A stretch of 64,000 bases of DNA from contig CAKQUG010000006.1 in NCBI GenBank assembly GCA_934277545.1, positions 5,473 through 69,472 of the forward strand, read 5' to 3'. The translations under genes and the position numbers were made by a program. This stretch comes from an uncultured Alphaproteobacteria bacterium. Its GTDB lineage: Bacteria; Pseudomonadota; Alphaproteobacteria; RF32; CAG-239. The notes beneath the pieces were generated by a model. That model saw nothing but the letters and a program-made list of their open reading frames with translations. It was not told where the DNA came from and searched no databases. Shown piece by piece: positions 2,044 to 58,952 of the stretch (position 1 is its first letter; each line of letters opens with the position of its first letter).

Positions 2044-2838
2044 ATGAAAATTGCCACGCTAAACATCAATTCCATCAACGCCAGACTGCCGAATCTGCTG
2101 CAATGGCTGCAGCAAAATCAGCCGGATATTCTGCTGTTGCAGGAAATTAAAACCGAATTTAACAATTTTCCGTTTTTCGATTTGCAGGTTTCGGGTTACG
2201 ACGCTAAAATTTTAGGGCAAAAAAGCTATAACGGCGTTGCGGTTTTAAGCAAACAAAAAATGACGGTTACCTCCGAGAATCTACCAAATTTTCCGGATGA
2301 AAACGCGCGTTATTTAGAAATAGAGTTTATGAAAAACGGTCAAAATTATATTGTGGCCTCGCTGTATCTGCCAAACGGCAATCCGCCGTATAACAATGAA
2401 AAAGACACTTCGCGCTTTGAATATAAACTCAAATGGATGGACGCTTTTTTAAGCCATGCCGAAGAATTGCTGCTGCAGCACAAAAACGTGATTTTAGCCG
2501 GCGATTTCAATGTGATATTAACTAAAGACGATGTTTTCAACCCCGAACTTTTTACCGGCAACGCTCTCTACCGACCGGAAGTTTGGCAGCGGCTGCATAA
2601 ATTAGAATTTATCGGCTATTCTGACGCCTATCGCCTTTTATATCCTTCACAAACCGGCTACACTTTTTGGGATTATACCAACGCCTCGTTTGCTAATGAT
2701 TTAGGTATGCGTATAGATTATATCTTTTGTTCTCCGGCGCTCGCCGATTGCCTGCAATCATGTCGCATAGACAAAGATTTCCGCGCTTTGGAAAAAGCAT
2801 CGGACCACACTGTTTTGCTGGCCGAATTTGAGGAATAG
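2044..2838 (+). CDS. xth: exodeoxyribonuclease III
   Basis: MKIATLNINSINARL...LLLQEIK...SDH matches the ExoIII/AP-endonuclease family. AAGGA lies 7 nt before the ATG at 2044; the track start at 2038 has no spacing for an RBS. Confidence 0.9.
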   Translation: MKIATLNINSINARLPNLLQWLQQNQPDILLLQEIKTEFNNFPFFDLQVSGYDAKILGQKSYNGVAVLSKQKMTVTSENLPNFPDENARYLEIEFMKNGQNYIVASLYLPNGNPPYNNEKDTSRFEYKLKWMDAFLSHAEELLLQHKNVILAGDFNVILTKDDVFNPELFTGNALYRPEVWQRLHKLEFIGYSDAYRLLYPSQTGYTFWDYTNASFANDLGMRIDYIFCSPALADCLQSCRIDKDFRALEKASDHTVLLAEFEE

Positions 2839-2840
2839 TG

Positions 2841-3902
2841 ATGAAAAAAATTATATTTTTTACAATTTTGCTAACGGCTTTTCCGGCTTTTGCCTCTGTT
2901 GATGAAAATTTGATAAATGAAATGCTGACTATGGTTAATAAAGACTATCTGCAACCGGTTAATAACGCCGAACTGGCGGCAAACGGACTGCAGGCGATTA
3001 CCAATCTGGATTCCGATGTTGTTATATCTAAAGGCAGCGACAAATTTTATCTTTACTATAAAAAACAAATAAAGAAAATTATTCCGCAACCCAAAGATGC
3101 CAATGATATTGCCGCTTGGAGCAAAACCATGGCGCAAATTGCCGATGAAACTTCAAAATGGTCAGAAAAAATAGCATTAAAAGATTTTGAACTACCGGAT
3201 TTAATGATGAAAAAAATCACCGGCAAACTTGATAAGTTTTCGCATTATTATTCGGAATACGATTACAGCGACGATAAAGAAGAAAACGCCATTTACACCT
3301 TATACAGCGACCGAAAAATTGATGATGTTTTATATTTGCGCGTACGAATTTTTAATAAGCAAACAGCCCTTGCCGTACAAGGTTCTTTGGAACGCAACAA
3401 GCCTTACAACGCCGTCATTTTAGACCTGCGAGGCAACAGCGGCGGAATTTTAAACGAAGCATTGAAAGTCGCCGATTTATTTACCGACAATGAAATTATA
3501 ACCTACACTTCCGGTCGCAATGGTTCCAACGAACATTACTACACCTCTAAAGAAGGACGATTGTATGACGGTCCGCTGGCCGTGCTGGTAGACGGCGAAA
3601 CCGCGTCGGCGGCAGAAGTTTTGGCAGCAGGGCTGCAAGACCAATCCCGCGCTGAAATTATCGGCACAAAGACCTTTGGCAAAGGCACCATCCAAAATGT
3701 GATACAAATGAGCAACGGCGGCAAACTCGTTTTAACCACCGAGCAATTTTTCACTCCGTCCGGCAAAGTAATTCACCAAAACGGCGTAACTCCTGATTTG
3801 TGCGTTGTCCCGGACAATAATGATTCCTGCCGCCAAGAAAGCCGGCTGTGGGATGAAAGCGACATTTCAACCGCCGTAAAATTGCTGAAAAATGAATTAT
3901 AG
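2841..3902 (+). CDS. S41 family (C-terminal processing-like) peptidase with signal peptide
   Basis: Motifs ILDLRGNSGG...VLVDGETASAAEVLAAGLQD...GTKTFGKGTIQ. GAGGA lies 6 nt upstream of the ATG at 2841. Confidence 0.8.
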   Translation: MKKIIFFTILLTAFPAFASVDENLINEMLTMVNKDYLQPVNNAELAANGLQAITNLDSDVVISKGSDKFYLYYKKQIKKIIPQPKDANDIAAWSKTMAQIADETSKWSEKIALKDFELPDLMMKKITGKLDKFSHYYSEYDYSDDKEENAIYTLYSDRKIDDVLYLRVRIFNKQTALAVQGSLERNKPYNAVILDLRGNSGGILNEALKVADLFTDNEIITYTSGRNGSNEHYYTSKEGRLYDGPLAVLVDGETASAAEVLAAGLQDQSRAEIIGTKTFGKGTIQNVIQMSNGGKLVLTTEQFFTPSGKVIHQNGVTPDLCVVPDNNDSCRQESRLWDESDISTAVKLLKNEL

Positions 3903-4215: not shown

Positions 4216-5151
4216 TTACTCTTTTTCAAGCGGATGCGCTTTATGGTATTCTCTTTGCAAAGTTGCAGTTTGAACATCTGTGTAGCGCTGGGTGGTGCTT
4301 AGGGACGCATGACCTAACAATTCTTGAATTGAGCGCAAATCCGTTCCCTCAGCCAACAACTGCGTGGCAAACGAATGTCTCAAGGCATGCGGGGTTACCG
4401 TATCGGGCAACCCTAAAATCGGACGCAGTTTTTGCAGTTGGCGCTGAATTATACGCGGGCTGATTCGCTCACCTCGTGCCCCCAAAAACAATGGTTCTCC
4501 TACATTGAGTTTATACGGGCATTCTGCAAGGTAAGCGGCGATATGCTGCCAAATAATCGGAAGAAGGGGCACTAAACGTTCTTTATTCCCCTTACCTTTA
4601 ACGCGAAGGAACTCGCTTTTCGCCGTTATATCGCCAATATTTATAGAAAGGGCTTCGGATATACGCAATCCACAACCGTATAACAAGGTTAAAATTGCTT
4701 TATCCCGAAGTCCCTGCCACGCTTCTAATTCTAATTTTTCAATACCTTTAAGCAAATTAAATGAATCATCAATATCCAAAGCCTTTGGCAAAACTTTAGA
4801 TTTTTTAGGTGAAGAAATAACGCTGATTGCCGGATTTTTAATAATTTTTTTGCGTTCCAACCATTTGAAAAAATTTTTAACAGCCGAAAGCTCGCGGCAC
4901 ATTGAAGATTTACTCAAGCAACGCGCGGCTTGTTTGCTTAAAAACTTTCTGAAATCATGGACATCCAGTTCTTTTAATTCCTGCATACTCAACGGAGTAT
5001 CTTTGACTTCCGTCAAAAAGAAAGATAAATCACGCGAATACCCGTCTAAAGTATGTTCGGAATACAGTCGTTCTTTCAAAAGCCAATCTTGCCACTTTTC
5101 AATAAGCGGCAGCAATGTGTTATCGGCATTAAATTGAATTTCGGCTCTCAC
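4216..5151 (-). CDS. xerC: site-specific tyrosine recombinase, XerC-like
   Basis: C-terminal HALRHSFATQLLAEGTDLRSIQELLGHASLSTTQRYTDV with catalytic R..H..R..Y context. GTG start. XerC versus XerD is not certain. Confidence 0.75.
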   Translation of the reverse strand: MRAEIQFNADNTLLPLIEKWQDWLLKERLYSEHTLDGYSRDLSFFLTEVKDTPLSMQELKELDVHDFRKFLSKQAARCLSKSSMCRELSAVKNFFKWLERKKIIKNPAISVISSPKKSKVLPKALDIDDSFNLLKGIEKLELEAWQGLRDKAILTLLYGCGLRISEALSINIGDITAKSEFLRVKGKGNKERLVPLLPIIWQHIAAYLAECPYKLNVGEPLFLGARGERISPRIIQRQLQKLRPILGLPDTVTPHALRHSFATQLLAEGTDLRSIQELLGHASLSTTQRYTDVQTATLQREYHKAHPLEKE

Positions 5152-5154
5152 GTT

Positions 5155-13477: not shown

Positions 13478-13928
13478 TTAACAACCGTTTCTGTTTGTTT
13501 TCATCAGTGGTGGAAACGGTTATTCTGCGTCCGTCCTCCGTCATTTCTATTTGCACATTCCACATATTACGCGGAGAAAATGCCCCCATTCTTTCCGGCC
13601 ATTCCACCAGACTTACGCCGGAATAAAAAGCCTCTTCCACACCAAGCTCAAAAATTTCCACTGGCTTTTCCAAACGATACAAATCATAGTGATAAATATC
13701 AAACGCCGGAGCGCTGTAAGTTTGCAATAATGTAAAAGTCGGACTCGGAACTTCTCCGGCGCCGGTAAGTTTTTTTATAAACGCGCGGGCAAACACACTT
13801 TTACCGGCTCCCAAAGTGCCGTTTAAAGCCCAAACATCGCCTTGCGTGCTGATTGCCGCCAACTTTTCCGCCACTGCGCCGGTGTCATCTTCACTGTGAG
13901 AAATAAAAACTTTTTCCATTAAAACCAC
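13470..13928 (-). CDS. tsaE: tRNA t6A37 biosynthesis protein TsaE
   Basis: GTLGAGKSVFARAFI...VPSPTFTLLQTY...YHYDLYRL. Confidence 0.85.
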   Translation of the reverse strand: MVLMEKVFISHSEDDTGAVAEKLAAISTQGDVWALNGTLGAGKSVFARAFIKKLTGAGEVPSPTFTLLQTYSAPAFDIYHYDLYRLEKPVEIFELGVEEAFYSGVSLVEWPERMGAFSPRNMWNVQIEMTEDGRRITVSTTDENKQKRLLNV

Positions 13929-14959
13929 CCGTCAAAATTAAACCAATCCGAACTTTTTTCTTGGGCTTTTGCCACGGCTTCCGCTTGTTTTGCCTGTAAC
14001 CGACGCCAATCACTCGGACGATAGAAACGTCCGTTCCACAAGCCCTTAGACTGTGAACGCGCCTGCTTTTCATACGGTACATAAACATCGGTGTTTTTAG
14101 CATAAGCCACCGCCCAACCGGCGCTTACAACCGCCGCCGCTACGTCATATTGCCCCAAAAAACAAACACCGGTCGCCCGATGTTGCAAAACATTTCCCAA
14201 AACATGACACTTAACTTCACGGCCGTTCAGCCAATTTTGCAGCCAGGTAATAGCCTTATGTCCGCAAGAATATGACAGTCCACGTGAATCCGAACAGGTT
14301 TGATTAGGATTCGGAGCGTCAACACCCAACAATTTAATATTTATACCTTTCACTCTCAGTACACTGCCAGTAATAACTCTCGGTACGCCCGTAACTTCGG
14401 GATAATCCTGCGGATTAAAATTGCTTATCTGCGCCGGTGCGGCGTCTGTTTTTCCGAACATACCGCTAATTTTAGAAAAAAAACCTCCGTTTTCCTCAAC
14501 TTCGCTTGCTGCATTATTATCAGTTGCCACTCCGTTCATTCCGACAGGTTCCAATTCGGCAAGTTTTTGCTCATTTGCGTTATTATCCGGCGCATATTCC
14601 GCCGACGCCTCGTTTTCGCTCAAAACCTGCTGCACGATTTTACCGCCGGCGCTATCCGCTCCGATAATTCCCAAACAATATAAAATAAACACCACCACGG
14701 CGCCGATAATGGCAAAAGAAAAGAAAAAGCTGACCGTCGACCACATAATTTTGAACAAAATATACAAAACCACAAACGCAATCACCACGCTGACAAATCC
14801 CATACCCTGCAGCGAAGTGCTGTCGCTTTGCGTCCCGGCGCCGCCGTAATACATTAAAACGGCAAACAACATGCACAAAAACACTTTTTTAACAAAAAAC
14901 ATCGGTAAAATCCTTATAATTATTGGTAATATTAGAACACAGTTTTTATGCTTATGCAA
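13919..14959 (-). CDS. membrane-anchored thermonuclease (SNase-like) family protein
   Basis: Several N-terminal TM helices. The C-terminal part (RVKGINIKLLGVDAPNPNQTC...AVVSAGWAVAY...KQARSQSKGLWNG) resembles the staphylococcal-nuclease fold. The true start may be the Met at 14902. Confidence 0.6.
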   Translation of the reverse strand: MHKHKNCVLILPIIIRILPMFFVKKVFLCMLFAVLMYYGGAGTQSDSTSLQGMGFVSVVIAFVVLYILFKIMWSTVSFFFSFAIIGAVVVFILYCLGIIGADSAGGKIVQQVLSENEASAEYAPDNNANEQKLAELEPVGMNGVATDNNAASEVEENGGFFSKISGMFGKTDAAPAQISNFNPQDYPEVTGVPRVITGSVLRVKGINIKLLGVDAPNPNQTCSDSRGLSYSCGHKAITWLQNWLNGREVKCHVLGNVLQHRATGVCFLGQYDVAAAVVSAGWAVAYAKNTDVYVPYEKQARSQSKGLWNGRFYRPSDWRRLQAKQAEAVAKAQEKSSDWFNFDGWF

Positions 14960-14960
14960 G

Positions 14961-16724
14961 CTATTTATAAAGTTTCGGCAGCGGCTCGGCTTCCGTTTTT
15001 TGCTTTTGCGAGCTTTCCGCTTGCTTTATTGTCCGTAAAATTACTTTTTCATCAACATTTTCATCTTTTCCGCCATATAAAATATTATTGAGTTTTTGCA
15101 GCTGTTTTCCGAATTCCGGTTCCGCCGCCGCTTTTGCCACATCGTCCAAGTTATTGATATTTTGCGATTTATAATTTTTCTGTCCCCACAGCACTAAATT
15201 ATCCCTCAGCAAACGATAATTTTTATCGGCAAAATTTTTATGTAAAATCGAACTCATATCGCTGATTTTAACTTCTTTTTCGCAAGCCTTTTCCGGGCGA
15301 CGGCGCAAAAGCAGACTGAACAGCATGCCCAAGATAAAAGCACAGGCGGCTAAAGCAATCGCTTTTTCTTTAGCAAAACCGCCTTTATCCGCAGTTCGGT
15401 TTTCAGTTTCCGACACTGCGGTTTGATTTACATTTTCCGCCTGTTTGCCGATATTTATATTTTGTTCGGTTTGCGTTTCGGTTACCGCCGTTCCGCCTTC
15501 CACAAAAACTTTTTCCGCCGGAATAACAGCCGTTTCCGCTTTTCCGGTTTTAACATTAAACCAATTTATTTTAATTTCCGGTAAAATCTGCTCGCCGCCC
15601 TTTTGCGGAATATACACCACTCTGGTTACGGATTGAGCCACCACTTTATCATCATAAACTTTAGCTTCCAATTCGGGATTTTCCGGATAAATTCTAAAGT
15701 TTTCGTCATCCGTAAAGTTCAGTTCCGGCAACTGAGTTTCGGCAACTCCGGCAGCCAAAACGGCAATTTGCCGCGACACGGTTTCGCCCACCTTAAACAA
15801 CGGCTTTTTCTCATTCCAAAAGGCTTTGACTTTTACCGCTTCCGCCGGCAGCCACCAGCCGTTTTCCGCCGCCGGCAGCACATTTACTTTTACCGGCTTT
15901 GTATATAATTCCACCGGTTTTTGCGTGCCGAACATTTCATCAAAATTTACATTCATCAACTGAAACAGACTGTTAGCGCCCCGGTGCAACAACGGATGAT
16001 TCTTTGCTTTATCAAACCCCATATAAAAGCCGTTAACCTTTAGCAACGGAATTTCCTGCTCTCCGCTTTTCTGCGGAAACAGCGCGTAATAAAACTTTAT
16101 AACCCGCTCGCCGTTTTGCTGAGTTATTTCCGGCTTTTTCAAAATTCTTACAATCCAATCTTCCGCATTAACAAACTTAGGCTCTTCAGTTAATTGCAAT
16201 CCGACTTTATCCTTAAGCGTCAGCACGGCGTTGATTTCCTGCTGAACATACGCTTTTTGAGAACTTACCGCCAAATCAACACTAAATTTATTAGCTTCAG
16301 CCAATCGGTTATCACTTTGAATATTATCATTTTTCTTTGCCGAAGCGCTGACATTGCTGCCGGCAGGCAACACTTTAATTTTCAGCGGCTTACTGCTGTA
16401 GGCTCCTATGCTGATTGCAGGAATTTCCAAATTTCCCTCGCGTTTCGGCATTAACCCAATATCCCAATCCGTCTGCTCTGAGCTATGCCCGTTAATATAG
16501 CTCATCTGCGACGAACTTGAGGTTGAATAAATATTAAAATCTTTTTGCAAAACGCTTAAATCAGGCTGCATTGAACCGCCGTTTTTACCGTCAAACGACA
16601 AGTTAAGGTTAAAGACTTCTCCCAAAGGCACAGTAGCATTATCCACCGCCGCCGTCAAGGATTCGGCATTGACCGTTGCAACTTTCATAAGCGCCAAAGC
16701 GCAAACCAGCACCAATTTTTTCAT
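14961..16724 (-). CDS. batD: BatD-like (oxygen tolerance) protein
   Basis: Signal peptide, large extracytoplasmic region and a C-terminal TM. Occupies the last position of a batA-batB/C operon. Confidence 0.6.
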   Translation of the reverse strand: MKKLVLVCALALMKVATVNAESLTAAVDNATVPLGEVFNLNLSFDGKNGGSMQPDLSVLQKDFNIYSTSSSSQMSYINGHSSEQTDWDIGLMPKREGNLEIPAISIGAYSSKPLKIKVLPAGSNVSASAKKNDNIQSDNRLAEANKFSVDLAVSSQKAYVQQEINAVLTLKDKVGLQLTEEPKFVNAEDWIVRILKKPEITQQNGERVIKFYYALFPQKSGEQEIPLLKVNGFYMGFDKAKNHPLLHRGANSLFQLMNVNFDEMFGTQKPVELYTKPVKVNVLPAAENGWWLPAEAVKVKAFWNEKKPLFKVGETVSRQIAVLAAGVAETQLPELNFTDDENFRIYPENPELEAKVYDDKVVAQSVTRVVYIPQKGGEQILPEIKINWFNVKTGKAETAVIPAEKVFVEGGTAVTETQTEQNINIGKQAENVNQTAVSETENRTADKGGFAKEKAIALAACAFILGMLFSLLLRRRPEKACEKEVKISDMSSILHKNFADKNYRLLRDNLVLWGQKNYKSQNINNLDDVAKAAAEPEFGKQLQKLNNILYGGKDENVDEKVILRTIKQAESSQKQKTEAEPLPKLYK

Positions 16725-16736
16725 ATTAACCTCGCT

Positions 16737-18581
16737 TTATTTATCATATCTTCTTTTTGCATATTCTCTTTGAATCAAAGCCCGGAGCAAACCGCCTTTG
16801 TCTTCTGGAATTTGCCGAAACTTCTGCATTCTGGCACGCATTTTTTCCAGTTCTTCCGGCGATTTTTCATCATTTACGCCAACAGTTTCCTGCTGTTCGT
16901 TGCCTTCTTTATTTTCCGCAGTCTGCTGCTGAATTTCAGCCTTATTTTCCCTATCCGACTTATTATCAGACAACTTGCTGTTTTCAGATTGCCGAGATTC
17001 ATTGTTATTTTGTTTTTTCTCGGCCTGCTGTGCCTTATTCTCGTTTTCATCTGTCTGTTGTTTATCTGCCTGCTGCTGTTCGGAGCTGTCGGATTTTGAC
17101 TGCTGAGGCTTTTGCTTTTCCTGCTGCCCCGATTGATTCTGCTGTTTCTGCTGATTTTCACTTTCTTTTTGCTCTTGCTGTGGATTTTGTTTCTGCTTTT
17201 CATCAGCTTGCTGCTGCTCGGAATTATTCTGAGCCTGCTGTTTCTGCTGCTGTTGTTCCTTTTTATCCTGCTTATTTTTATCTTGCTGCTGATGCTGTTG
17301 ATTTTGCTGCTGCTGTTGTTTTTTCAAATATTCCAAATTAAACTTTGCATCAGGAAAATCAGATTGTTTTTGCAAAGCCTCCTCATATTTCTTTATCGCC
17401 TCGGCAATTTTTCCGCCTTTTGCCAATGCGTTTCCTTGATTATACAATGAAACGGCGTCATTTTTTTGCGCATATTTTTCATACGCCTTCTGATAATTTC
17501 CGTTTTTATATTCTGCCGCGGCTTTCCATTGCGTATCCGTAAATTTTTCGGCCGCCGCCGCATAATTTTGTTTATTAAATTCTTGCAGCGCCTCCTGGTT
17601 GTCATTCAAAAACCAACCGGCCTGAGCATTCACTCCTGTTAACAGACTCAACAACAGCGCCGCCAACGCGCCTTTGCGAAAAAATCCCAGTAAAAGCAAG
17701 GCCGGAAGCCACAGCAAATACCAGCCCATATCTTCCCAAACTGTCTGCATATTTTTGCTCTGTTTAATTTCTTTAGAGGTTATGTCGTTAATTTTTTTAA
17801 CCAGCGGCGCATAGCTCTGATTATAATTAAGCAGCATTCCCCGTCCTTTTTCGGCAACCATTTCCAGCTTCTCCACCGCCTTGGAGCTGACATTGATTAT
17901 ATTTACATCAAATCCCTGCTCCGCCGCCTTAGCCGCCGCCGTCAGCGCCGCGTCAAAACGTTCTCCCACGTTTGAAGTAACTACAATCAGATTGCCGCTT
18001 GGCACATCGGCTTCCCGCATACGCGAAACCGCGAAATCAATAGCTCTGTCCAAGCGATCGCCGTCTTCCGGCATCACATTCATTTGCAGCGCCGGCAGCA
18101 TATTATCAATAATAGAAACATCTTCCGCCAGCGGAGTAATCATAAACGGCTCTTTGCTATACACAATCAGTCCGCTTTCAGTATTCCGCAAAGATTTGGT
18201 TAAATCTTTAATCACATATTTGGCACGCTCAATCCGGCTCGGAGAAACATCTTTATTCCACATCTCGCCTGACATATTCAACAAAATCATCACCGGATTT
18301 TCCACGCTCAGCGCCGGGTTTTCTTTTTTTATCCAGGTCGGTCCGGACAATCCCAGCACCAAAAACAAAGAAATCAGCGCCGGCACCAAAGAACTGAGTT
18401 TTGTTTTTTTCAGCTTTTCATTTTTCACCAGCAAAAATTTCAGTAAATTTTCATCACATACTTTGCGCCATGCCGATTGAGCTACGGCCTGCCGATAGGC
18501 AATAACGTAAACCGCCAGCGGAATAATCAGCCCGATAAGCCACCACGGACGTAAAAAGTGAAAATCCTGCCACCAAGCCAT
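16737..18581 (-). CDS. VWA domain plus TPR protein (BatB-BatC-like fusion) with a long Q-rich tail
   Basis: N-terminal TM followed by a VWA-like region, then TPR-like repeats (YKNGNYQKAYEKY, YNQGNALAKGGKIAEAIKKYEEAL), then about 190 aa of Q/K/E/N low complexity. Confidence 0.65.
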   Translation of the reverse strand: MAWWQDFHFLRPWWLIGLIIPLAVYVIAYRQAVAQSAWRKVCDENLLKFLLVKNEKLKKTKLSSLVPALISLFLVLGLSGPTWIKKENPALSVENPVMILLNMSGEMWNKDVSPSRIERAKYVIKDLTKSLRNTESGLIVYSKEPFMITPLAEDVSIIDNMLPALQMNVMPEDGDRLDRAIDFAVSRMREADVPSGNLIVVTSNVGERFDAALTAAAKAAEQGFDVNIINVSSKAVEKLEMVAEKGRGMLLNYNQSYAPLVKKINDITSKEIKQSKNMQTVWEDMGWYLLWLPALLLLGFFRKGALAALLLSLLTGVNAQAGWFLNDNQEALQEFNKQNYAAAAEKFTDTQWKAAAEYKNGNYQKAYEKYAQKNDAVSLYNQGNALAKGGKIAEAIKKYEEALQKQSDFPDAKFNLEYLKKQQQQQNQQHQQQDKNKQDKKEQQQQKQQAQNNSEQQQADEKQKQNPQQEQKESENQQKQQNQSGQQEKQKPQQSKSDSSEQQQADKQQTDENENKAQQAEKKQNNNESRQSENSKLSDNKSDRENKAEIQQQTAENKEGNEQQETVGVNDEKSPEELEKMRARMQKFRQIPEDKGGLLRALIQREYAKRRYDK

Positions 18582-19616
18582 TTATTTAACCTTTCTTGAA
18601 ACAACCAACCACAACACAAACAAAAACAGCGCCGCTGCCGCCGGATAAGGATATAATTCTCTTATTTCCTGCACATAGCGACCATCAGCAGTTCTTGGTT
18701 CCAACTTATCAATTTTATCATAAATCTGCGCCAGTGAATTTACATCTCTGGCTCTGAAATAATTACCTTGGGTTTCTTTTGCCAACGCTTTCAAACTTTT
18801 TTCATCCAGCCCCTTATCCCTCGGAATACTGAACAGCCCGCCGAAAAACACTTCTGTGTCGCTGCCGGCGCCAATGGTGTAAATTTTAACTCCTTCTTCT
18901 TTTGCCAAAGCTATTGCCTGCGGCAATGACAAACTTCCGTCATTATTTTCACCGTCGGTCAGCAAAATAATCACTTTATTTTCCGGCTTTCCGGCAGATT
19001 CGGCCAAACTTTTCAGCGCCACTCCCACGGCATCACCTATAGAAGTGGAATTTCCGGCCATTCCGGCATCGGCAGTTTGCAGCATTTCTTTAACCGATTG
19101 CCTGTCATAGGTTAACGGCGCTTGCAAATAAGCTCTGGTACCGAACAAAACCAAGCCGATTCTATCCGCCGTACGCTTATCAATAAAACTTGACACCACG
19201 CTTTTAACCGCGGCTAAACGGCTGTACATTTTCTGTTGATATTCAAAATCTTCTTCGCTCATGGAATTAGAAATATCCACCACCAGCAAAATATCACGTC
19301 CCTCGTTTTTTACCGGTATCGGTTTGCCGGCCCATTGCGGACGACACAAGGCAAAAACCAGCAGGCACCACGCTGCAATCAATATAATTCCGCGGATTCC
19401 TGCGGCAATTTTCGGACTTAGCAGCGCACTGTTTCCGCTTTGAGTTTGAATGTGCTTTATATCCGCCAAAAACGGAATTTTCAAAGCCTCGCTATATGTT
19501 TTTTTCAGTGCCGGCAACAGAAAATACACCGCAAACGGCAGCAACAGCAGCCAAGCCGCCTCCGGACAGGCAAAATGATTTATCATCATAGATTCGCTCC
19601 TATCCAACCCAAGCAA
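18582..19616 (-). CDS. batA: VWA domain-containing protein, BatA-like
   Basis: Two N-terminal TM helices, MIDAS-like DILLVVDISNSM, LLTDGENN, and a C-terminal TM. Confidence 0.75.
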   Translation of the reverse strand: MLGLDRSESMMINHFACPEAAWLLLLPFAVYFLLPALKKTYSEALKIPFLADIKHIQTQSGNSALLSPKIAAGIRGIILIAAWCLLVFALCRPQWAGKPIPVKNEGRDILLVVDISNSMSEEDFEYQQKMYSRLAAVKSVVSSFIDKRTADRIGLVLFGTRAYLQAPLTYDRQSVKEMLQTADAGMAGNSTSIGDAVGVALKSLAESAGKPENKVIILLTDGENNDGSLSLPQAIALAKEEGVKIYTIGAGSDTEVFFGGLFSIPRDKGLDEKSLKALAKETQGNYFRARDVNSLAQIYDKIDKLEPRTADGRYVQEIRELYPYPAAAALFLFVLWLVVSRKVK

Positions 19617-20044
19617 AACTTCCGCAGTTCTGCCACATTATCCGCAGCAAACAAAGCGCTGTCCGTCGGAGCATACGGAGCGTCAATCAGCAAACTCGCC
19701 GTTTCTGAACTCAATTTATTTTTAGAATGTTCATTTAAAAAATTAACCCAATTACGTCCGGCATAAGCAACGGCTTCCGGATAGCGGCTGACACAGATTC
19801 GCCGCAGCAGTTCCGACATAAAAACCGCTGCTGCCGCCGTGTTTTCCGCTCCGTTTTTCTGCAACAGATAACGAGCATAAATTTTTTTGCTGTTTTCTCT
19901 GAACCAAGTAATTATTTTCCATAAAGCGAAAATCAGCAAAACCGCCGCTACGAGGCTCCACCAGCCATAAGCCAACGGCCAAACGGAAACACCGTTTTCC
20001 GGCAGATGAATGTCTTTTAAATCGGGTAAATTATCCATATTCAA
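19586..20044 (-). CDS. DUF4381-like small membrane protein (first gene of the Bat operon)
   Basis: LPDLKDIHLPE..VS.WPLAYGWW followed by a TM. A TTGATA-17-TAAATT promoter-like sequence lies just upstream on the minus strand. Confidence 0.5.
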   Translation of the reverse strand: MNMDNLPDLKDIHLPENGVSVWPLAYGWWSLVAAVLLIFALWKIITWFRENSKKIYARYLLQKNGAENTAAAAVFMSELLRRICVSRYPEAVAYAGRNWVNFLNEHSKNKLSSETASLLIDAPYAPTDSALFAADNVAELRKFCLGWIGANL

Positions 20045-42468: not shown

Positions 42469-43305
42469 CTAAAATTCCAAAACAAACAAGCAATATTCCT
42501 CTCCTATCGCACAAGAGGTGCAAACATTTTGTATATCGGATAACGTCATATTAACTAAACACTTATTGCTGTCAGTGCATTGTGAATCTCCATAATAATG
42601 GATATTGCCGTTTTTAGTTCTAAAAATCCAGACAAATTGTAGAGAAGAATGCAAAGGCTGAGCAAAATTGCTGATAAATTCTCGGCACAATTTAGTTGAA
42701 AAATTATCTGAAACCAAATAGTTATCAGTAGAAGAGGCATTTCCTAGCGCTATGTCGTAAACTAGATGGTTATCACGGGAAAATATCGTGATTATGCTGC
42801 CGACAGTATCTGATATTACAGTACTGTTTTCAAACGACCAACCTTCAGGAAGCAGATTTAATCCTTTAATTGTTTCTGCTAAATCATATTTATTGCTACC
42901 ATTATCAGATTTCAGGTTTCTCAAATTATCTATATGTTCCAGCAAACCATGAGTTAAATAACTATATCCAGCAATGGCTTTGTTAATTTTCCACTTTTCC
43001 ATAGCCTTGGAATAACCAGCAATACCGCCAACCGATAACACGCCGATAATTGCCAGTACGCCCAGCATTTCTATCATTGAACGCCCACCTTGCAACACAC
43101 TCCAGTGGTCATACTTGGCTTTGAGCGTCAGTTCATTTTCCGAGAATCCGGTATGGTATATCCGCTTTAAAAACTTGCAACAAACGCTAAGCCCTCGCCC
43201 CCTGCACCCGTCATTCTCGAATTCATCCCGAGTATCTTGTATGAACATACTCCTTTTGAATAATAATGCGATAATCTTATCTCTCAACTCCTTATATCTC
43301 CTCAT
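42469..43305 (-). CDS. type IV pilin-like protein, copy A (prepilin-type N-terminal block; start uncertain)
   Basis: QGG|RSMIEMLGVLAIIGVLSVGGIAGYSKAM has Gly, Glu at +5 and a hydrophobic helix. The track ORF extends to 43362, into the inverted-repeat module; I regard that part as non-coding. Confidence 0.6.
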   Translation of the reverse strand: MRRYKELRDKIIALLFKRSMFIQDTRDEFENDGCRGRGLSVCCKFLKRIYHTGFSENELTLKAKYDHWSVLQGGRSMIEMLGVLAIIGVLSVGGIAGYSKAMEKWKINKAIAGYSYLTHGLLEHIDNLRNLKSDNGSNKYDLAETIKGLNLLPEGWSFENSTVISDTVGSIITIFSRDNHLVYDIALGNASSTDNYLVSDNFSTKLCREFISNFAQPLHSSLQFVWIFRTKNGNIHYYGDSQCTDSNKCLVNMTLSDIQNVCTSCAIGEEYCLFVLEF

Positions 43306-43306
43306 T

Positions 43307-43483
43307 TGTGTAAAAATAATGACCGTTATTTTTACACACTTTAAACAACCGTTTGAAAACACTTAACAAAACGCAAAAAATATTGTAATTATAAAAAGTT
43401 ATTGCAAATTTCACCGACCTTTGCTACATTGCAAAAAGAGTTAGTTTTAAAGTCCAATTTAAACGGTCGTTTTTTTTACACAC
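43307..43483. repeat. conserved ~177-bp module bounded by 22-bp inverted repeats, copy A
   Basis: About 85% identical by eye to 51451-51628. Left arm TGTGTAAAAATAATGACCGTT, right arm AACGGTCGTTTTTTTTACACAC. Confidence 0.75.
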
Positions 43484-50547: not shown

Positions 50548-51435
50548 TTAATCAGGATTGAGCAAAATTCGGAAATATCCTCGTCCGTTTTCTTTAATTG
50601 CAATATTGCAGCGTTCATTTATTTGCGCAGGAGAAGTCTGTCCGATTGTGCTTTTATTGAAAATCAACACACCGCTAGTTCCGCTCCAGCTATCGGAATC
50701 TATGCGGCTAAAGTCAACCTGTTCAACTTCATTGGGTATGGTTTGTACGATTTGTATAATATTTTTACAATATTCTTTCATGGATATAGAAAGTTTGCCG
50801 GTTCCTTCTATGGCGCTGATACGAATTGCATATTTAAATACTTGTTTGGTAGAACCGTCTTTTTGCATGTCATTTTCAATGCCATAGGTTATGCTTATAC
50901 TGTTATTATCTAAGTCATATATTATGCGGTTTTTATAAATAAAACCATTTGGTATGGCTCCCATAGCATTAAAAATATCAGTTACAGTTATTGAGCGATT
51001 TCCTCTTATGGAAGACAAATTTGGTTTTAGAGTAATAGCATTGTTTATTAACTCAACAAGCAAATCTTTCTGCTTGTCTGAATGCCACATCAGCATAGCT
51101 TTGGAATATCCGGCGATACCACCTACGCTCAGCACGGCAATAATCGCGAGCACGCCGAGCATTTCAATCATAGACCGACCAACCTCGCCACATGCGGGAG
51201 AGGTCGGCGTGATAACGCCGTGTGAGGGATACTTAAAAGACTTGCAAAAGACACCAAACCAGCGTTTCCAGTACCTACCTAAAACGTCATTCTTCAGCGG
51301 CACACACCACAGGCTGTGCCATGCTGGATAATCCATGACTTTGTTGCTGAAAGCAACGCTACTTTTTTCTCCCGCACGGGGCGAGGTTTTAAATCCCCTA
51401 CTCTTCTTCAATAAAAATTCTATACCTTTCAACAC
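50548..51435 (-). CDS. type IV pilin-like protein, copy B, with a ~95-aa leader
   Basis: GTG at 51435 preceded by AAGGAG at 7-nt spacing. ...GEVG|RSMIEMLGVLAIIAVLSVGGIAGYSKAM. Confidence 0.6.
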   Translation of the reverse strand: MLKGIEFLLKKSRGFKTSPRAGEKSSVAFSNKVMDYPAWHSLWCVPLKNDVLGRYWKRWFGVFCKSFKYPSHGVITPTSPACGEVGRSMIEMLGVLAIIAVLSVGGIAGYSKAMLMWHSDKQKDLLVELINNAITLKPNLSSIRGNRSITVTDIFNAMGAIPNGFIYKNRIIYDLDNNSISITYGIENDMQKDGSTKQVFKYAIRISAIEGTGKLSISMKEYCKNIIQIVQTIPNEVEQVDFSRIDSDSWSGTSGVLIFNKSTIGQTSPAQINERCNIAIKENGRGYFRILLNPD

Positions 51436-51450
51436 GTTGTTTCTCCTTGA

Positions 51451-51628
51451 GTGTGTAAAAATAACGACCGTTATTTTTACACACTTCGAACAACCGTCTG
51501 AAAATACTTAAAAAACAAGCAAAAAATATCGTAATTATAAAAAGTTATTGCAAAAACCGCCAACCTCTGATAAATTGCAAAAAAAGCTATTTTAAAGTCC
51601 GATTTAAACGGTCGTTATTTTTACACAC
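51451..51628. repeat. conserved 178-bp module bounded by perfect 22-bp inverted repeats, copy B
   Basis: GTGTGTAAAAATAACGACCGTT (51451-51472) is the exact reverse complement of AACGGTCGTTATTTTTACACAC (51607-51628). The left end is itself a 34-bp near-palindrome. Confidence 0.8.
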
Positions 51629-51669
51629 TTTTGACAAAACACTCTTATATGACATTTACAATTTAACAT

Positions 51670-51698
51670 TTGACATATTTAGTTTGAGCACCTAAAAT
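51670..51698 (+). promoter_or_regulatory. near-consensus sigma70 promoter (TTGACA-17-TAAAAT) upstream of pilin-like copy C
   Basis: Hexamers at 51670-51675 and 51693-51698, about 35 nt upstream of the RBS GAGGA (51721-51725) and the ATG at 51733. Confidence 0.5.
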
Positions 51699-51755
51699 AA
51701 AAATATAACTAACCAAAAATGAGGAAAGAAAGATGAAAAATAAGCAAACAAAAGG

Positions 51756-51770
51756 TCTCTCTCTCTCTCT
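51756..51770 (+). repeat. (CT)7 dinucleotide tract
   Basis: TCTCTCTCTCTCTCT read directly. It lies between the ATG at 51733 and the open frame leading into copy C. Confidence 0.95.
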
Positions 51771-51908
51771 GCAAATCCTAGACATCTAATTAAAGGTACT
51801 TTTTTCGCCGCTACACAGGTATTTACAGAGTTTTTCGATAAAATCAGAAATTTTCCAACCTCGCCAATTGAGGGAGTACTAAGAAGCGTTGCTTACAGTA
51901 ACAAGGTT

Positions 51909-52808
51909 ATGGATACTCGTCGGCCACAACCAGCGGGGTGTGGCGACAAGTATGACGTTGATTGTTGGTGCTTTAAACGCTTGTTTAATATATGTAGCAA
52001 GTTCTTTAAATACCCCTCACCCGACACTAACGTGTCGACCTCTCCCGCAAGGGGCGAGGTAAAAACAAACATCCTACACAATGGTTTGGATGTCGTGCGT
52101 CAATACGCCGCACTTTTGGAACGTGGTGTACAATGTAGTACACGAGTGAGAAAAGCGCTAGTAGAGACCAGACAGGCAAACCCGCTAGGGCAGAGTATGA
52201 TTGAAATGCTCGGAGTGCTCGCAATCATTGCGGTGTTATCAGTTGGTGGGATTGCCGGATACTCAAAAGCTATGAGTATTTGGCGGATAAACAAAGCCAC
52301 GGAAGAATATACCAACATAATTTACAATTTGCTATCAAATCTTGATGAAGCCAGAAATCAAAAATATGAAGACCCAGCTGCAGGAATAAATTTATTTGAA
52401 TATGTAAAAGCAACAGATATTGTACCTAAAAATTGGAAAAACAATTCGAATAACCAGTTTATAGACCAATATGGAAATGTTTTTGCATTTGTTCATCGAT
52501 ACAACATCGTTGTTATTGATATGTATATCGGTGGTTCAAAGCCTCTAAACAGTGGAAATGCCGGCTTAGATAGTTTCTACCCTCAATATTGTACAACAAT
52601 GTTAAGGAATGTAGCAAAACCTCTTTCTTCTATTCTTAACAATGTTTGGTTTATAATAAATGGGCGTAATGCAGGTATATATTATGGTGATAATTACTGT
52701 GTCAAAGGAAAAAATTGTATAAGAAATATGAATATGAGCACAATAAAAGATATTTGCTTACAATGTACTAATAACAATAGTTTTTGTGGTATAATTTGGG
52801 AATTTTAA
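51909..52808 (+). CDS. type IV pilin-like protein, copy C (frame is open upstream to 51744)
   Basis: ...NPLGQ|SMIEMLGVLAIIAVLSVGGIAGYSKAM. The ATG at 51909 has no RBS and lies inside the conserved SVAYSNKVMD leader motif. Confidence 0.6.
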   Translation: MDTRRPQPAGCGDKYDVDCWCFKRLFNICSKFFKYPSPDTNVSTSPARGEVKTNILHNGLDVVRQYAALLERGVQCSTRVRKALVETRQANPLGQSMIEMLGVLAIIAVLSVGGIAGYSKAMSIWRINKATEEYTNIIYNLLSNLDEARNQKYEDPAAGINLFEYVKATDIVPKNWKNNSNNQFIDQYGNVFAFVHRYNIVVIDMYIGGSKPLNSGNAGLDSFYPQYCTTMLRNVAKPLSSILNNVWFIINGRNAGIYYGDNYCVKGKNCIRNMNMSTIKDICLQCTNNNSFCGIIWEF

Positions 52809-56925: not shown

Positions 56926-57651
56926 TTAAAAGGAAGTGTTATCCAACAAAAACACTATACCGCAGCGATTAAGCTCGCATTTCTTGCAAAGTTCAGCCAC
57001 CTTAGCTAAACTATAGGGCTGACATCCCATATCTTTTGCATATTCAGTCGGAGCCGCTTTTCCGCAAACCGCATAACCGAAATTTTCATTCCAAACAACC
57101 CAATTACTATTAAAAACCTGCCCCATCTCATACAATTTCTTACAGCAGGCAACTGCGTCTTTTCCCGCCGGCATTTGATGATACACATGCAGCCTTATAC
57201 CATATTTAGCCCAATATCTGGTTAAAATCTGCAATCTGTTGCCAAACAAATCTCTGCGGTTCGCATCCAACATGCCTTGAGGAATCACTCCTGATTCAAT
57301 CAAAGTTCCGGTAATATCCTTAACCGTATCGCCGAATGATTTTTGGTTCATATACATAGCCTGTGTTTCTACAATAACCTGGGTTAAGTTTGCACTCCAC
57401 TTATCCAGTTTATACATACTCATTGCTTTGGAATATCCGGCAATTCCTCCGACTGACAGCACGCCGATAATAGCCAGCACGCCCAGCATTTCAATCATAC
57501 TTCGTCCGCCCTGTATATTGTTACCAACGCCATACTTCGGCACTTCATGCCGTTTAATGGACTGAGACAGTTTCGGAGTATCCATGACTTTGTTGCCAAA
57601 GGCAACGCTTATTAAACGATAGAATACACTATTTTCAAACTTCTTACACAT
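56926..57651 (-). CDS. type IV pilin-like protein, copy D, with a 49-aa leader
   Basis: AAGAGG lies 9 nt before the ATG at 57651. ...NIQGG|RSMIEMLGVLAIIGVLSVGGIAGYSKAM. Confidence 0.65.
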   Translation of the reverse strand: MCKKFENSVFYRLISVAFGNKVMDTPKLSQSIKRHEVPKYGVGNNIQGGRSMIEMLGVLAIIGVLSVGGIAGYSKAMSMYKLDKWSANLTQVIVETQAMYMNQKSFGDTVKDITGTLIESGVIPQGMLDANRRDLFGNRLQILTRYWAKYGIRLHVYHQMPAGKDAVACCKKLYEMGQVFNSNWVVWNENFGYAVCGKAAPTEYAKDMGCQPYSLAKVAELCKKCELNRCGIVFLLDNTSF

Positions 57652-58770: not shown

Positions 58771-58952
58771 TTTTAATTACCTCTGATATTTATATACATA
58801 TATATATACTACAAACTTTTTGTTTATTTGTCAACAATAGAAAGATTTCATATCGACACAATACTCGCCCTTAAAGATAAATACATTAAATTATGCAAAA
58901 AACTCCCTCATTCATTGAACAAGGGAGTTTTTTTTAGCCCAAATAAGTTTTT

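Follow-up and report, generated by a model that had tools for sequence, protein, structure and literature searches.

A (TC)n tract as a probable translational phase-variation switch in a pilin-like gene family of uncultured gut Alphaproteobacteria

The 64-kb stretch of contig CAKQUG010000006.1 analyzed here (the window), from an uncultured Alphaproteobacteria bacterium, contains a pilin-like gene, copy C, whose 5′ region carries a pure TC-dinucleotide tract between a strong translation start and the reading frame of the pilin-like protein. The best explanation of this arrangement, to which we assign a probability of roughly three in four, is slipped-strand translational phase variation by (TC)n, with the sequenced copy C in the OFF state. 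What the original prediction had observed in the window was confirmed, and its interpretation is largely supported by the comparative evidence given below. The 5′ region and body of copy C consist of the following elements.

51670-51698, + strand: sigma-70-like fixed promoter of copy C, TTGACA-17-TAAAAT, matching 11 of 12 consensus positions
51721-51732, + strand: Shine-Dalgarno (SD) block GAGGAAAGAAAG, core GAGGA at 51721-51725, identical in nearly all related loci
51733-51755, + strand: ATG and basic, prepilin-leader-like start MKNKQTK(G), resembling the family's short canonical leaders
51756-51770, + strand: putative frame-switch tract (TC)7T, TCTCTCTCTCTCTCT; seven units are out of frame (OFF)
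51733-51789, + strand: OFF-state 18-codon product MKNKQTKGLSLSLQILDI, terminated by TAA at 51787-51789
51771-52190, + strand: long stop-free leader or spacer in the pilin frame, with hairpin and repetitive extragenic palindromic (REP)-like modules, ending ...NPLG before QSMIEM (predicted cleavage)
51909-51911, + strand: caller-assigned start ATG of copy C, inside the stop-free frame that begins at the tract
52061-52065, + strand: A5 run in the leader, a second indel hot spot (A4 in L004/L008, L006 and L094/L095)
52191-52808, + strand: mature pilin-like protein QSMIEMLGVLAIIAVLSVGGIAGYSKAM... with a variable head; stop codon at 52806-52808

Rechecking of the window returned exactly the predicted coordinates of the promoter, of the GAGGA core and of ATG 51733, which a 7-nt spacer separates from GAGGA; the promoter lies within a 73-nt segment (51648-51720). 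The tract is positioned 8 codons past this SD-preceded ATG (SD-ATG) and encodes LSLSL directly after MKNKQTKG, upstream of the predicted cleavage site G↓QSMIEM (arrow, cleavage). As predicted, the frame opened by ATG 51733 runs through TCTCTCTCTCTCTCT for 18 codons. Both non-pilin frames encounter early stops after the tract, TAG at 51779-51781 and TAA at 51787-51789, and almost all relatives have stops at the same two positions, with differing stop codons. The copy C frame (ATG 51909, 299 aa, stop 52808) proved to be open back to 51744, and ATG 51909 to lack a usable SD, the sole SD-like sequence upstream of it being AAGG at 2-nt spacing. Loss of one CT unit, the step proposed to join ATG 51733 to this frame, yielded a single conceptual open reading frame (ORF) of 357 aa (51733-52808), and a 9-unit allele would join the two by arithmetic as well; the window allele is one unit from ON. 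The window contained a single TC tract of at least seven units, and 0 of 100 dinucleotide-preserving shuffles had one; thus the tract is not a chance feature.

The original prediction had named an invariant tract among related strains as one observation that would speak against a switch. Comparison of 12 further syntenic copy C loci (L001-L010, L094 and L095), one of which (L007) is identical to the window, revealed that the tract varies, with seven units in six distinct loci and eight units in six distinct loci between identical flanks; the 150 nt on each side of the tract were essentially invariant among these orthologs. L002 and L003 exhibited 0 differences over 1500 nt downstream, yet carried seven and eight units, respectively. 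Upstream of the tract, the segment 51648-51720 with the copy C promoter was missing from L002 and L003 (P0002-type strains; an indel of ~72 nt), and L009 contained a different sequence at this position, also with TTGACA.

Two scans extended the comparison to the family, one of GTDB genomes and one of metagenome contigs for the generic SD-ATG pattern GAGGAAAGAAAGATGAAAAATAAGC. A strain-specific DNA pattern had 0 matches among the metagenome contigs and the generic pattern retrieved 83 loci, the SD block at 51721-51732 being specific enough to pull them out. A block of promoter, SD, ATG-MKNKxxKG, (TC)n and GCAAATCC recurred 5′ of more than 100 pilin-like paralogs in several species of related gut Alphaproteobacteria; it was present in 33 tract-bearing loci of the GTDB scan, in 28 of which a pilin N-terminus could be recognized, and in the 83 metagenome loci, each with its own conserved promoter. 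The order of the family block was TTGACT-N17/18-TAGAAT, a spacer of ~25 nt, the SD GAGGAAAG, ATG AAA AAT AAG ... AAA GG, (TC)n, and T GCAAATCCTrAACATCTGATTAAAGG. Most tract-bearing paralogs had TTGACT-N17/18-TAGAAT ahead of the SD, and the window promoter at 51670-51698 is its positional homologue. A single interrupted tract was found (L169), at a locus without a pilin downstream.

In the unbiased sets from these scans, the tract had six units at 5 loci, seven at 72 and eight at 30, and 4 intact genes were in frame versus 76 out of frame. All four ortholog groups defined at ≥96% identity were polymorphic, with seven versus eight units. The four 6-unit alleles of intact genes (L096, L125, L148 and L151) were uninterrupted ORFs that begin at the SD-ATG, cover LSLS and the leader and end with a mature part of 199-209 aa (for example, MKNKLFKGLSLSANPKHLIKG...VGRSMIEM...). 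These continuous full-length ORFs support the claim that (CT)n sets the reading frame, and the comparative data likewise agree with the predicted OFF state of the sequenced allele, seven units being out of frame. The protein database also holds in-frame alleles with 6, 9 or 12 units; a profile search of it with conceptual in-frame N-termini, which was not exhaustive, returned 30 short proteins. An ON state in the consensus of ~5% of intact loci fits a many-paralog family of which few members would be expressed per cell, so that each locus would appear OFF in consensus.

The same counts can be read differently, with the 7- and 8-unit alleles taken as functional and the polymerase or the ribosome slipping by one CU unit (+2/−1 nt on seven units, −2/+1 nt on eight), in which case expression would be constitutive and low and switching at the DNA level secondary. 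Consistent with this, 95% of intact genes have seven or eight units, each exactly one unit off frame; the tRNAs would re-pair perfectly after a 2-nt slip, an invariant SD-like AAAGG lies directly 5′ of the tract, and both out-of-frame readings end within 4-7 codons at conserved positions. We nevertheless consider such recoding unlikely, given that the natural 6-unit intact ORFs show in-frame DNA to be tolerated and slippage to be unnecessary, that seven and eight units would require slips in opposite directions, and that AAAGG also simply codes for the K-G end of the prepilin leader; furthermore, programmed slippage on a dinucleotide tract has, to our knowledge, not been documented in bacteria. 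The notion that intact genes are never in frame, which had been drawn from three long-contig alleles (L091-L093) and favoured programmed slippage, was disproved by the four intact 6-unit alleles of the DNA scan.

Analysis of the sequence between the tract and the mature protein revealed that the pilin frame was stop-free back to the tract in 80 of the 85 loci whose pilin N-terminus could be recognized, and stop-free from the tract to the first in-frame ATG, GTG or TTG in 81 of 84 loci. Across this latter stretch (4,334 codons, 84 loci, 74 unique sequences), the pilin frame contained 11 stops, confined to three loci, and the other frames 257 and 406; of the three stop-bearing loci, L124 is simply broken and the other two are known to be frameshifted further downstream. 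From the tract to the MIEM ATG of copy C, the pilin frame contained 0 stops and the other frames 13 and 7. Since the stretch before the canonical starts is stop-free, ribosomes reading the pilin frame must come in at the tract or upstream of it, and the sole SD-start there is the MKNK ATG. Together with the conserved module, this openness supports the proposal that copy C truly starts at the SD-ATG at 51733.

These counts also bear on the idea that the tract is a passenger in a 5′ cassette spread among paralogs by recombination, with copy C translated from ATG 51909 or later whatever the tract length. The module is near-identical in DNA across species, constraint at the amino-acid level is absent after the tract, gene-caller and NCBI annotations place the start further downstream (P0020, P0123), and some members have short leaders beside the mature part, all of which agree with a passenger. 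A start downstream would, however, leave unexplained why 81 of 84 loci are stop-free before the first canonical start when the other frames have 257 and 406 stops there; no usable SD precedes ATG 51909, and a neutral repeat would gather interruptions, of which one case was seen. We therefore regard a passenger tract as improbable. Even less probable is control by an upstream ORF, in which the SD-ATG would make a peptide of 16-18 aa and termination-reinitiation at a non-canonical codon immediately past the tract would give access to the pilin frame, the tract length tuning the coupling. The 7-unit stop does overlap an in-frame AUU (UAAUU here, UGAUU in relatives), and stop positions are conserved in both alternative frames; yet the 8-unit stop lies 8 nt upstream of this AUU, AUU starts without an SD are inefficient, and neither the upkeep of a pure hypermutable repeat nor the in-frame, full-length 6-unit alleles would be explained.

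Variation after the tract was even over the three codon positions (0.42, 0.50 and 0.45 bits), without a third-position excess, indicating that the leader peptide is not conserved as a protein and that only the openness of its frame is conserved. The leaders were mosaics of hairpin and REP-like modules with very unequal lengths (171-636 nt in the first 28), and the structure model of copy C had a predicted local distance difference test score (pLDDT) below 50 over most of residues 1-92; leader-frame peptides of copy C include ANPRHLIK and GTFFAATQVFTEFFDK. The missing third-position excess, the low model confidence and the modular mosaic composition led us to reject a conserved protein domain, and an untranslated 5′ region was rejected on account of the 80 of 85 stop-free frames and of compensated frameshifts. 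The latter were found at the A5 run of copy C orthologs: in L004/L008, the change from A5 to A4 is compensated by a 2-nt deletion, and in L006, A4 occurs together with a 14-nt hairpin deletion that restores the frame. The distinct 2-nt and 14-nt deletions represent two independent frame restorations; in L094/L095, the change from A5 to A4 is an uncompensated frameshift. The open frame and the compensated frameshifts point to selection for the absence of stops and the right frame, not for the peptide, the pattern to be expected if the leader is discarded after its translation.

Frameshifts of this kind raise the question of whether copy C is a decaying pseudogene in which the tract frameshift is a plain inactivating mutation. 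The further, uncompensated frameshift in L094 and L095 and the disrupted relatives L091-L093 agree with decay, but the 354-codon frame 51744-52808 is intact in the window, 76 other intact loci share the same one-unit-off state, and leader frameshifts have repeatedly been compensated; we find decay the hardest of the alternatives to credit.

Several further observations concern the leader. REP-like hairpins occupy 52022-52070 of the window (CGACAC-TAAC-GTGTCG; CCTCTCCC-GCAA-GGGGCGAGG; plus the A5 run), and some leaders (P0111, P0013 and P0014) contain tandem GLHRPWC.KILGT.PRMTGG and LLRR.TPRNDA modules, which are translated REP-like hairpins, over more than 200 residues with no stop. An Rfam scan of 41-59 kb for a known RNA element in the leader returned just a tRNA and sub-threshold noise. 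The segment ...SVAYSNKVMD, out of phase with ATG 51733, had been described as homologous to the N-termini of copies B and D of the window: it does align with the upstream parts of B and D at the DNA level, including a small hairpin GTTGC-N5-GYAAC, whereas the peptide is not conserved in the manner of a protein. This conserved hairpin is located at 51888-51902 in C (GTTGC-N5-GTAAC), at ~51340-51354 in B (GTTGC-N5-GCAAC) and at ~57589-57603 in D (GTTGCC-N3-GGCAAC), in each case right ahead of a conserved ATGGAT, and its changes among the three preserve pairing. A sigma-54 promoter at the conserved GTTGC element was discarded on inspection because the spacing did not fit.

We propose that the fixed promoter (51670-51698) and the strong SD-ATG (51721-51735) start translation of the basic leader MKNKQTKG, and that the tract directly behind it sets the frame, transcription and initiation both appearing constitutive. 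With six or nine units, ribosomes would read on through a ~140-codon spacer of unconstrained sequence into G↓QSMIEM..., giving a 357-aa precursor from which a prepilin peptidase would presumably take off the whole leader. With seven units, as in the window, or eight, translation would end after 18 or 16 codons, leaving the gene OFF. Slipped-strand mispairing during replication would add or remove CT units, such that each paralog flips stochastically and a minority is ON at any locus. Switching within clonal populations, synthesis and processing of the long precursor, and a role of the product as a subunit of a surface filament are what we infer from these sequences.

A number of points weigh against this switch. 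All of the evidence comes from population consensus assemblies. None of the 12 distinct copy C orthologous loci had six or nine units, and seven and eight are both OFF; the 9-unit allele was likewise absent (n=0) from the unbiased sets of the GTDB and metagenome scans. The three in-frame alleles inspected on long contigs were all in disrupted genes: in L091, the SD is weakened and the frame stops early, L092 is a 6-unit paralog with an IS110-family transposase inserted in its leader, and L093 is a truncated remnant. The uncompensated frameshift in L094 and L095 may mean that copy C is decaying in some strains, and initiation at 51909 could take place in the OFF state. A leader of 60-220 residues, whose translation and cleavage we infer from sequence, would be far longer than any prepilin leader known to us. 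Finally, support for the pilin-like assignment is limited, consisting of sub-threshold motif matches and architecture.

Copy C is one of four paralogs in the window.

42469-43362, − strand: copy A
50548-51435, − strand: copy B, divergent partner of copy C, without a tract; SD AAGGAG at 51443-51448 and GTG start at 51433-51435
51909 (ATG) to 52808 (stop), + strand: copy C
56926-57651, − strand: copy D

All four share G↓(R/Q)SMIEMLGVLAII(A/G)VLSVGGIAGYSKAM, with G at −1, E at +5 and a hydrophobic helix. The prepilin-type motif G↓(R/Q)SMIEMLGVLAII(A/G)VLSVGGIAGY was invariant in 20 of 20 aligned members, and the ~27 N-terminal residues of the mature protein were invariant family-wide. A protein search returned 6,686 matches, confined to metagenome-assembled genomes (MAGs) of uncultured gut Alphaproteobacteria, with many paralogs per genome. 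Some members have short prepilin leaders (MKQNQFG↓RS, MKNNQCG↓RS and MYKNFEKG↓RS) that closely resemble MKNKQTKG at 51733, whereas the leader of copy C would span ~150 aa. Curated pilin thresholds were missed: the score for Pfam N_methyl (PF07963) was 15.8 bits versus 21.2, and in the PF07963/TIGR02532 test of the prepilin motif, scores of 15.5 and 14.7 bits fell below the cut-off of 16.3. AlphaFold models contained a low-confidence leader, a helix of 48-49 residues and a beta-sheet head. Foldseek against the PDB gave no match at E ≤ 0.001, the best being a pseudopilin at E 0.82, and a profile search of the PDB returned Geopilin at a non-significant E of 0.058; one member is named a GspH-family protein by NCBI. 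Pilus or type II secretion system (T2SS) machinery was not found among the 20 other ORFs scanned in the window. Pilin-like is thus an architectural label, not proven membership of the pilins.

Copies B and C are separated by a second candidate regulatory element.

51451-51628, strand not applicable: invertible segment (178 bp) between B and C, with 20-nt inverted repeats GTGTGTAAAAATAACGACCG (51451-51470) and CGGTCGTTATTTTTACACAC (51609-51628)
51548-51576, + strand: candidate promoter within the invertible segment, TTGCAA-N17-TAAATT with TG before it, pointing to C and away from B

The inverted repeats have the form GTGTGTAAAAA...CG; an extra inner arm on the B side (51471-51484) forms a palindrome, and the SD and GTG start of copy B lie directly outside the repeat. 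Nucleotides 1-154 of L003 were the exact reverse complement of 2628-2781 of L002 between identical flanks, and these opposite orientations demonstrate that the segment inverts in nature; L097 is a second flipped case. With the copy C promoter segment missing, copy C of L002 and L003 could be transcribed only from the invertible promoter. The inverton was conserved in 43 distinct loci across species, with a second copy in the window upstream of copy A (43308-43483), and its −35 and TGn-TAnAnT elements were conserved across species with a variable spacer; on these consensus matches, the promoter assignment is that of a candidate. When loci were oriented by this promoter, a tract-less pilin gene lay behind it in 33 of 43, with SD and start directly outside the repeat, as in B, and these inverton-adjacent genes look mostly OFF in consensus. 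The divergent layout of pilin gene, inverton and tract-bearing gene also occurred in L015, L048, L050, L066, L073 and L074, from several species. No dedicated recombinase was found beside the inverton when every window ORF of at least 110 aa was scanned for motifs; the sole strong tyrosine-recombinase candidate in the window, at 4216-5154, is XerC-like (TIGR02224, 313 bits) and located 47 kb from the inverton.

It is possible, though doubtful, that these elements together form a previously undescribed two-switch system, in which dozens of paralogs would be gated either by (TC)n or by a ~178-bp inverton, often in divergent pairs with one inverton in common, and all would be built on very long cleavable leaders selected only for the absence of stops. 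Such leaders would accommodate inserted REP-like hairpins, IS110 insertions and frameshifts that are compensated. A stronger version holds that the one-unit-off state, which is nearly universal, may also serve RNA-level slippage as a normal, low-level mode of expression.

Side observations were made on the wider set of loci and on the window. The IS110-type (DEDD) transposase family includes the Moraxella pilin invertase Piv. The IS110-family (DEDD) transposase gene of L092 lies at 2215-3147 on the − strand, and four database proteins share the junction peptide NSDEKVIHREI at their end, which suggests site-specific insertion into a leader module. Many contigs among L011-L090 and L096-L178 begin or end within a few nt of the SD-ATG-tract module or of the inverton; short-read assemblies thus seem to be interrupted systematically at these repeated 5′ cassettes. 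Several of the bins that carry these genes have the label Bacteroidaceae or Eubacteriales, although the same genes are otherwise found in alphaproteobacterial MAGs, which may reflect mis-binning or mislabelling. The window also contains an imperfect (AT)11 tract downstream of copy D (58786-58809) and, at 13919-19637 on the − strand, a BatD/VWA/TPR cluster resembling a Bat aerotolerance-type operon together with a nuclease-domain protein, apparently unrelated to the pilin-like genes.

If slipped-strand switching by (TC)n is correct, an abundant uncultured lineage of human-gut Alphaproteobacteria would possess a large, stochastically switched pilin-like repertoire, a hallmark of antigenic or phage-receptor variation that is more familiar from pathogens such as Helicobacter and Neisseria. 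Coding sequence selected only for openness, as in long leaders conserved for the absence of stops alone, would then be unusual. For annotation, gene callers would be misplacing the starts of these genes, 51909 being an example. A literature search found no paper on this pilin-like family or on its (TC)n switch.

The closest parallels are the CT-repeat outer-membrane protein genes of Helicobacter pylori, among them hopZ with its 5′ CT repeats. Slipped-strand mispairing at CT-dinucleotide repeats in the 5′ coding region switches oipA (PMC10564699), and sabA is subject to CT-repeat frame switching too (PMC2715451). Copy C shares with these genes the CT unit, its place just past the start in the leader, the setting of the frame by the number of units and presumed membership of a surface-protein family; the likeness is one of mechanism and implies no homology. 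The present genes differ in that they encode unrelated, type-IV-pilin-like proteins in uncultured gut Alphaproteobacteria, have an unconstrained spacer of 60-220 codons between tract and mature protein, occur as dozens of paralogs per genome, and are known from population consensus assemblies rather than isolates. In Neisseria, opa genes contain CTCTT repeats in the leader-coding region and pilC a poly-G in the signal-peptide region, whereas pilE varies by gene conversion and not by a repeat. As in opa and pilC, a simple repeat is located in the leader-coding part of a multigene surface or pilus-associated family with most copies OFF; the repeat unit is different, and they have no sequence homology to copy C.

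Compared with type IV pilins and T2SS pseudopilins, the family shares G at −1, E at +5, a hydrophobic helix of ~20 residues, a long helix with a beta head in the model and, in some members, short basic leaders, but it has R or Q at +1 instead of F or M, sub-threshold motifs, no significant structural match and very long leaders. Invertible promoter switches, including E. coli fimS, Bacteroides invertons and the Moraxella Piv pilin inversion, have been reviewed (PMC11868660). The segment 51451-51628 shares with them inverted repeats, a promoter-like core and the presence of both orientations in natural samples, and differs from them in having no adjoining recombinase gene in the window, an extra inner arm and a divergent pairing with a repeat-switched gene. 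The proposed mechanism belongs to a known kind, but the protein family and the lineage are new to it, and what sets it apart from the known systems is the long, unconstrained leaders and the pairing with an inverton.

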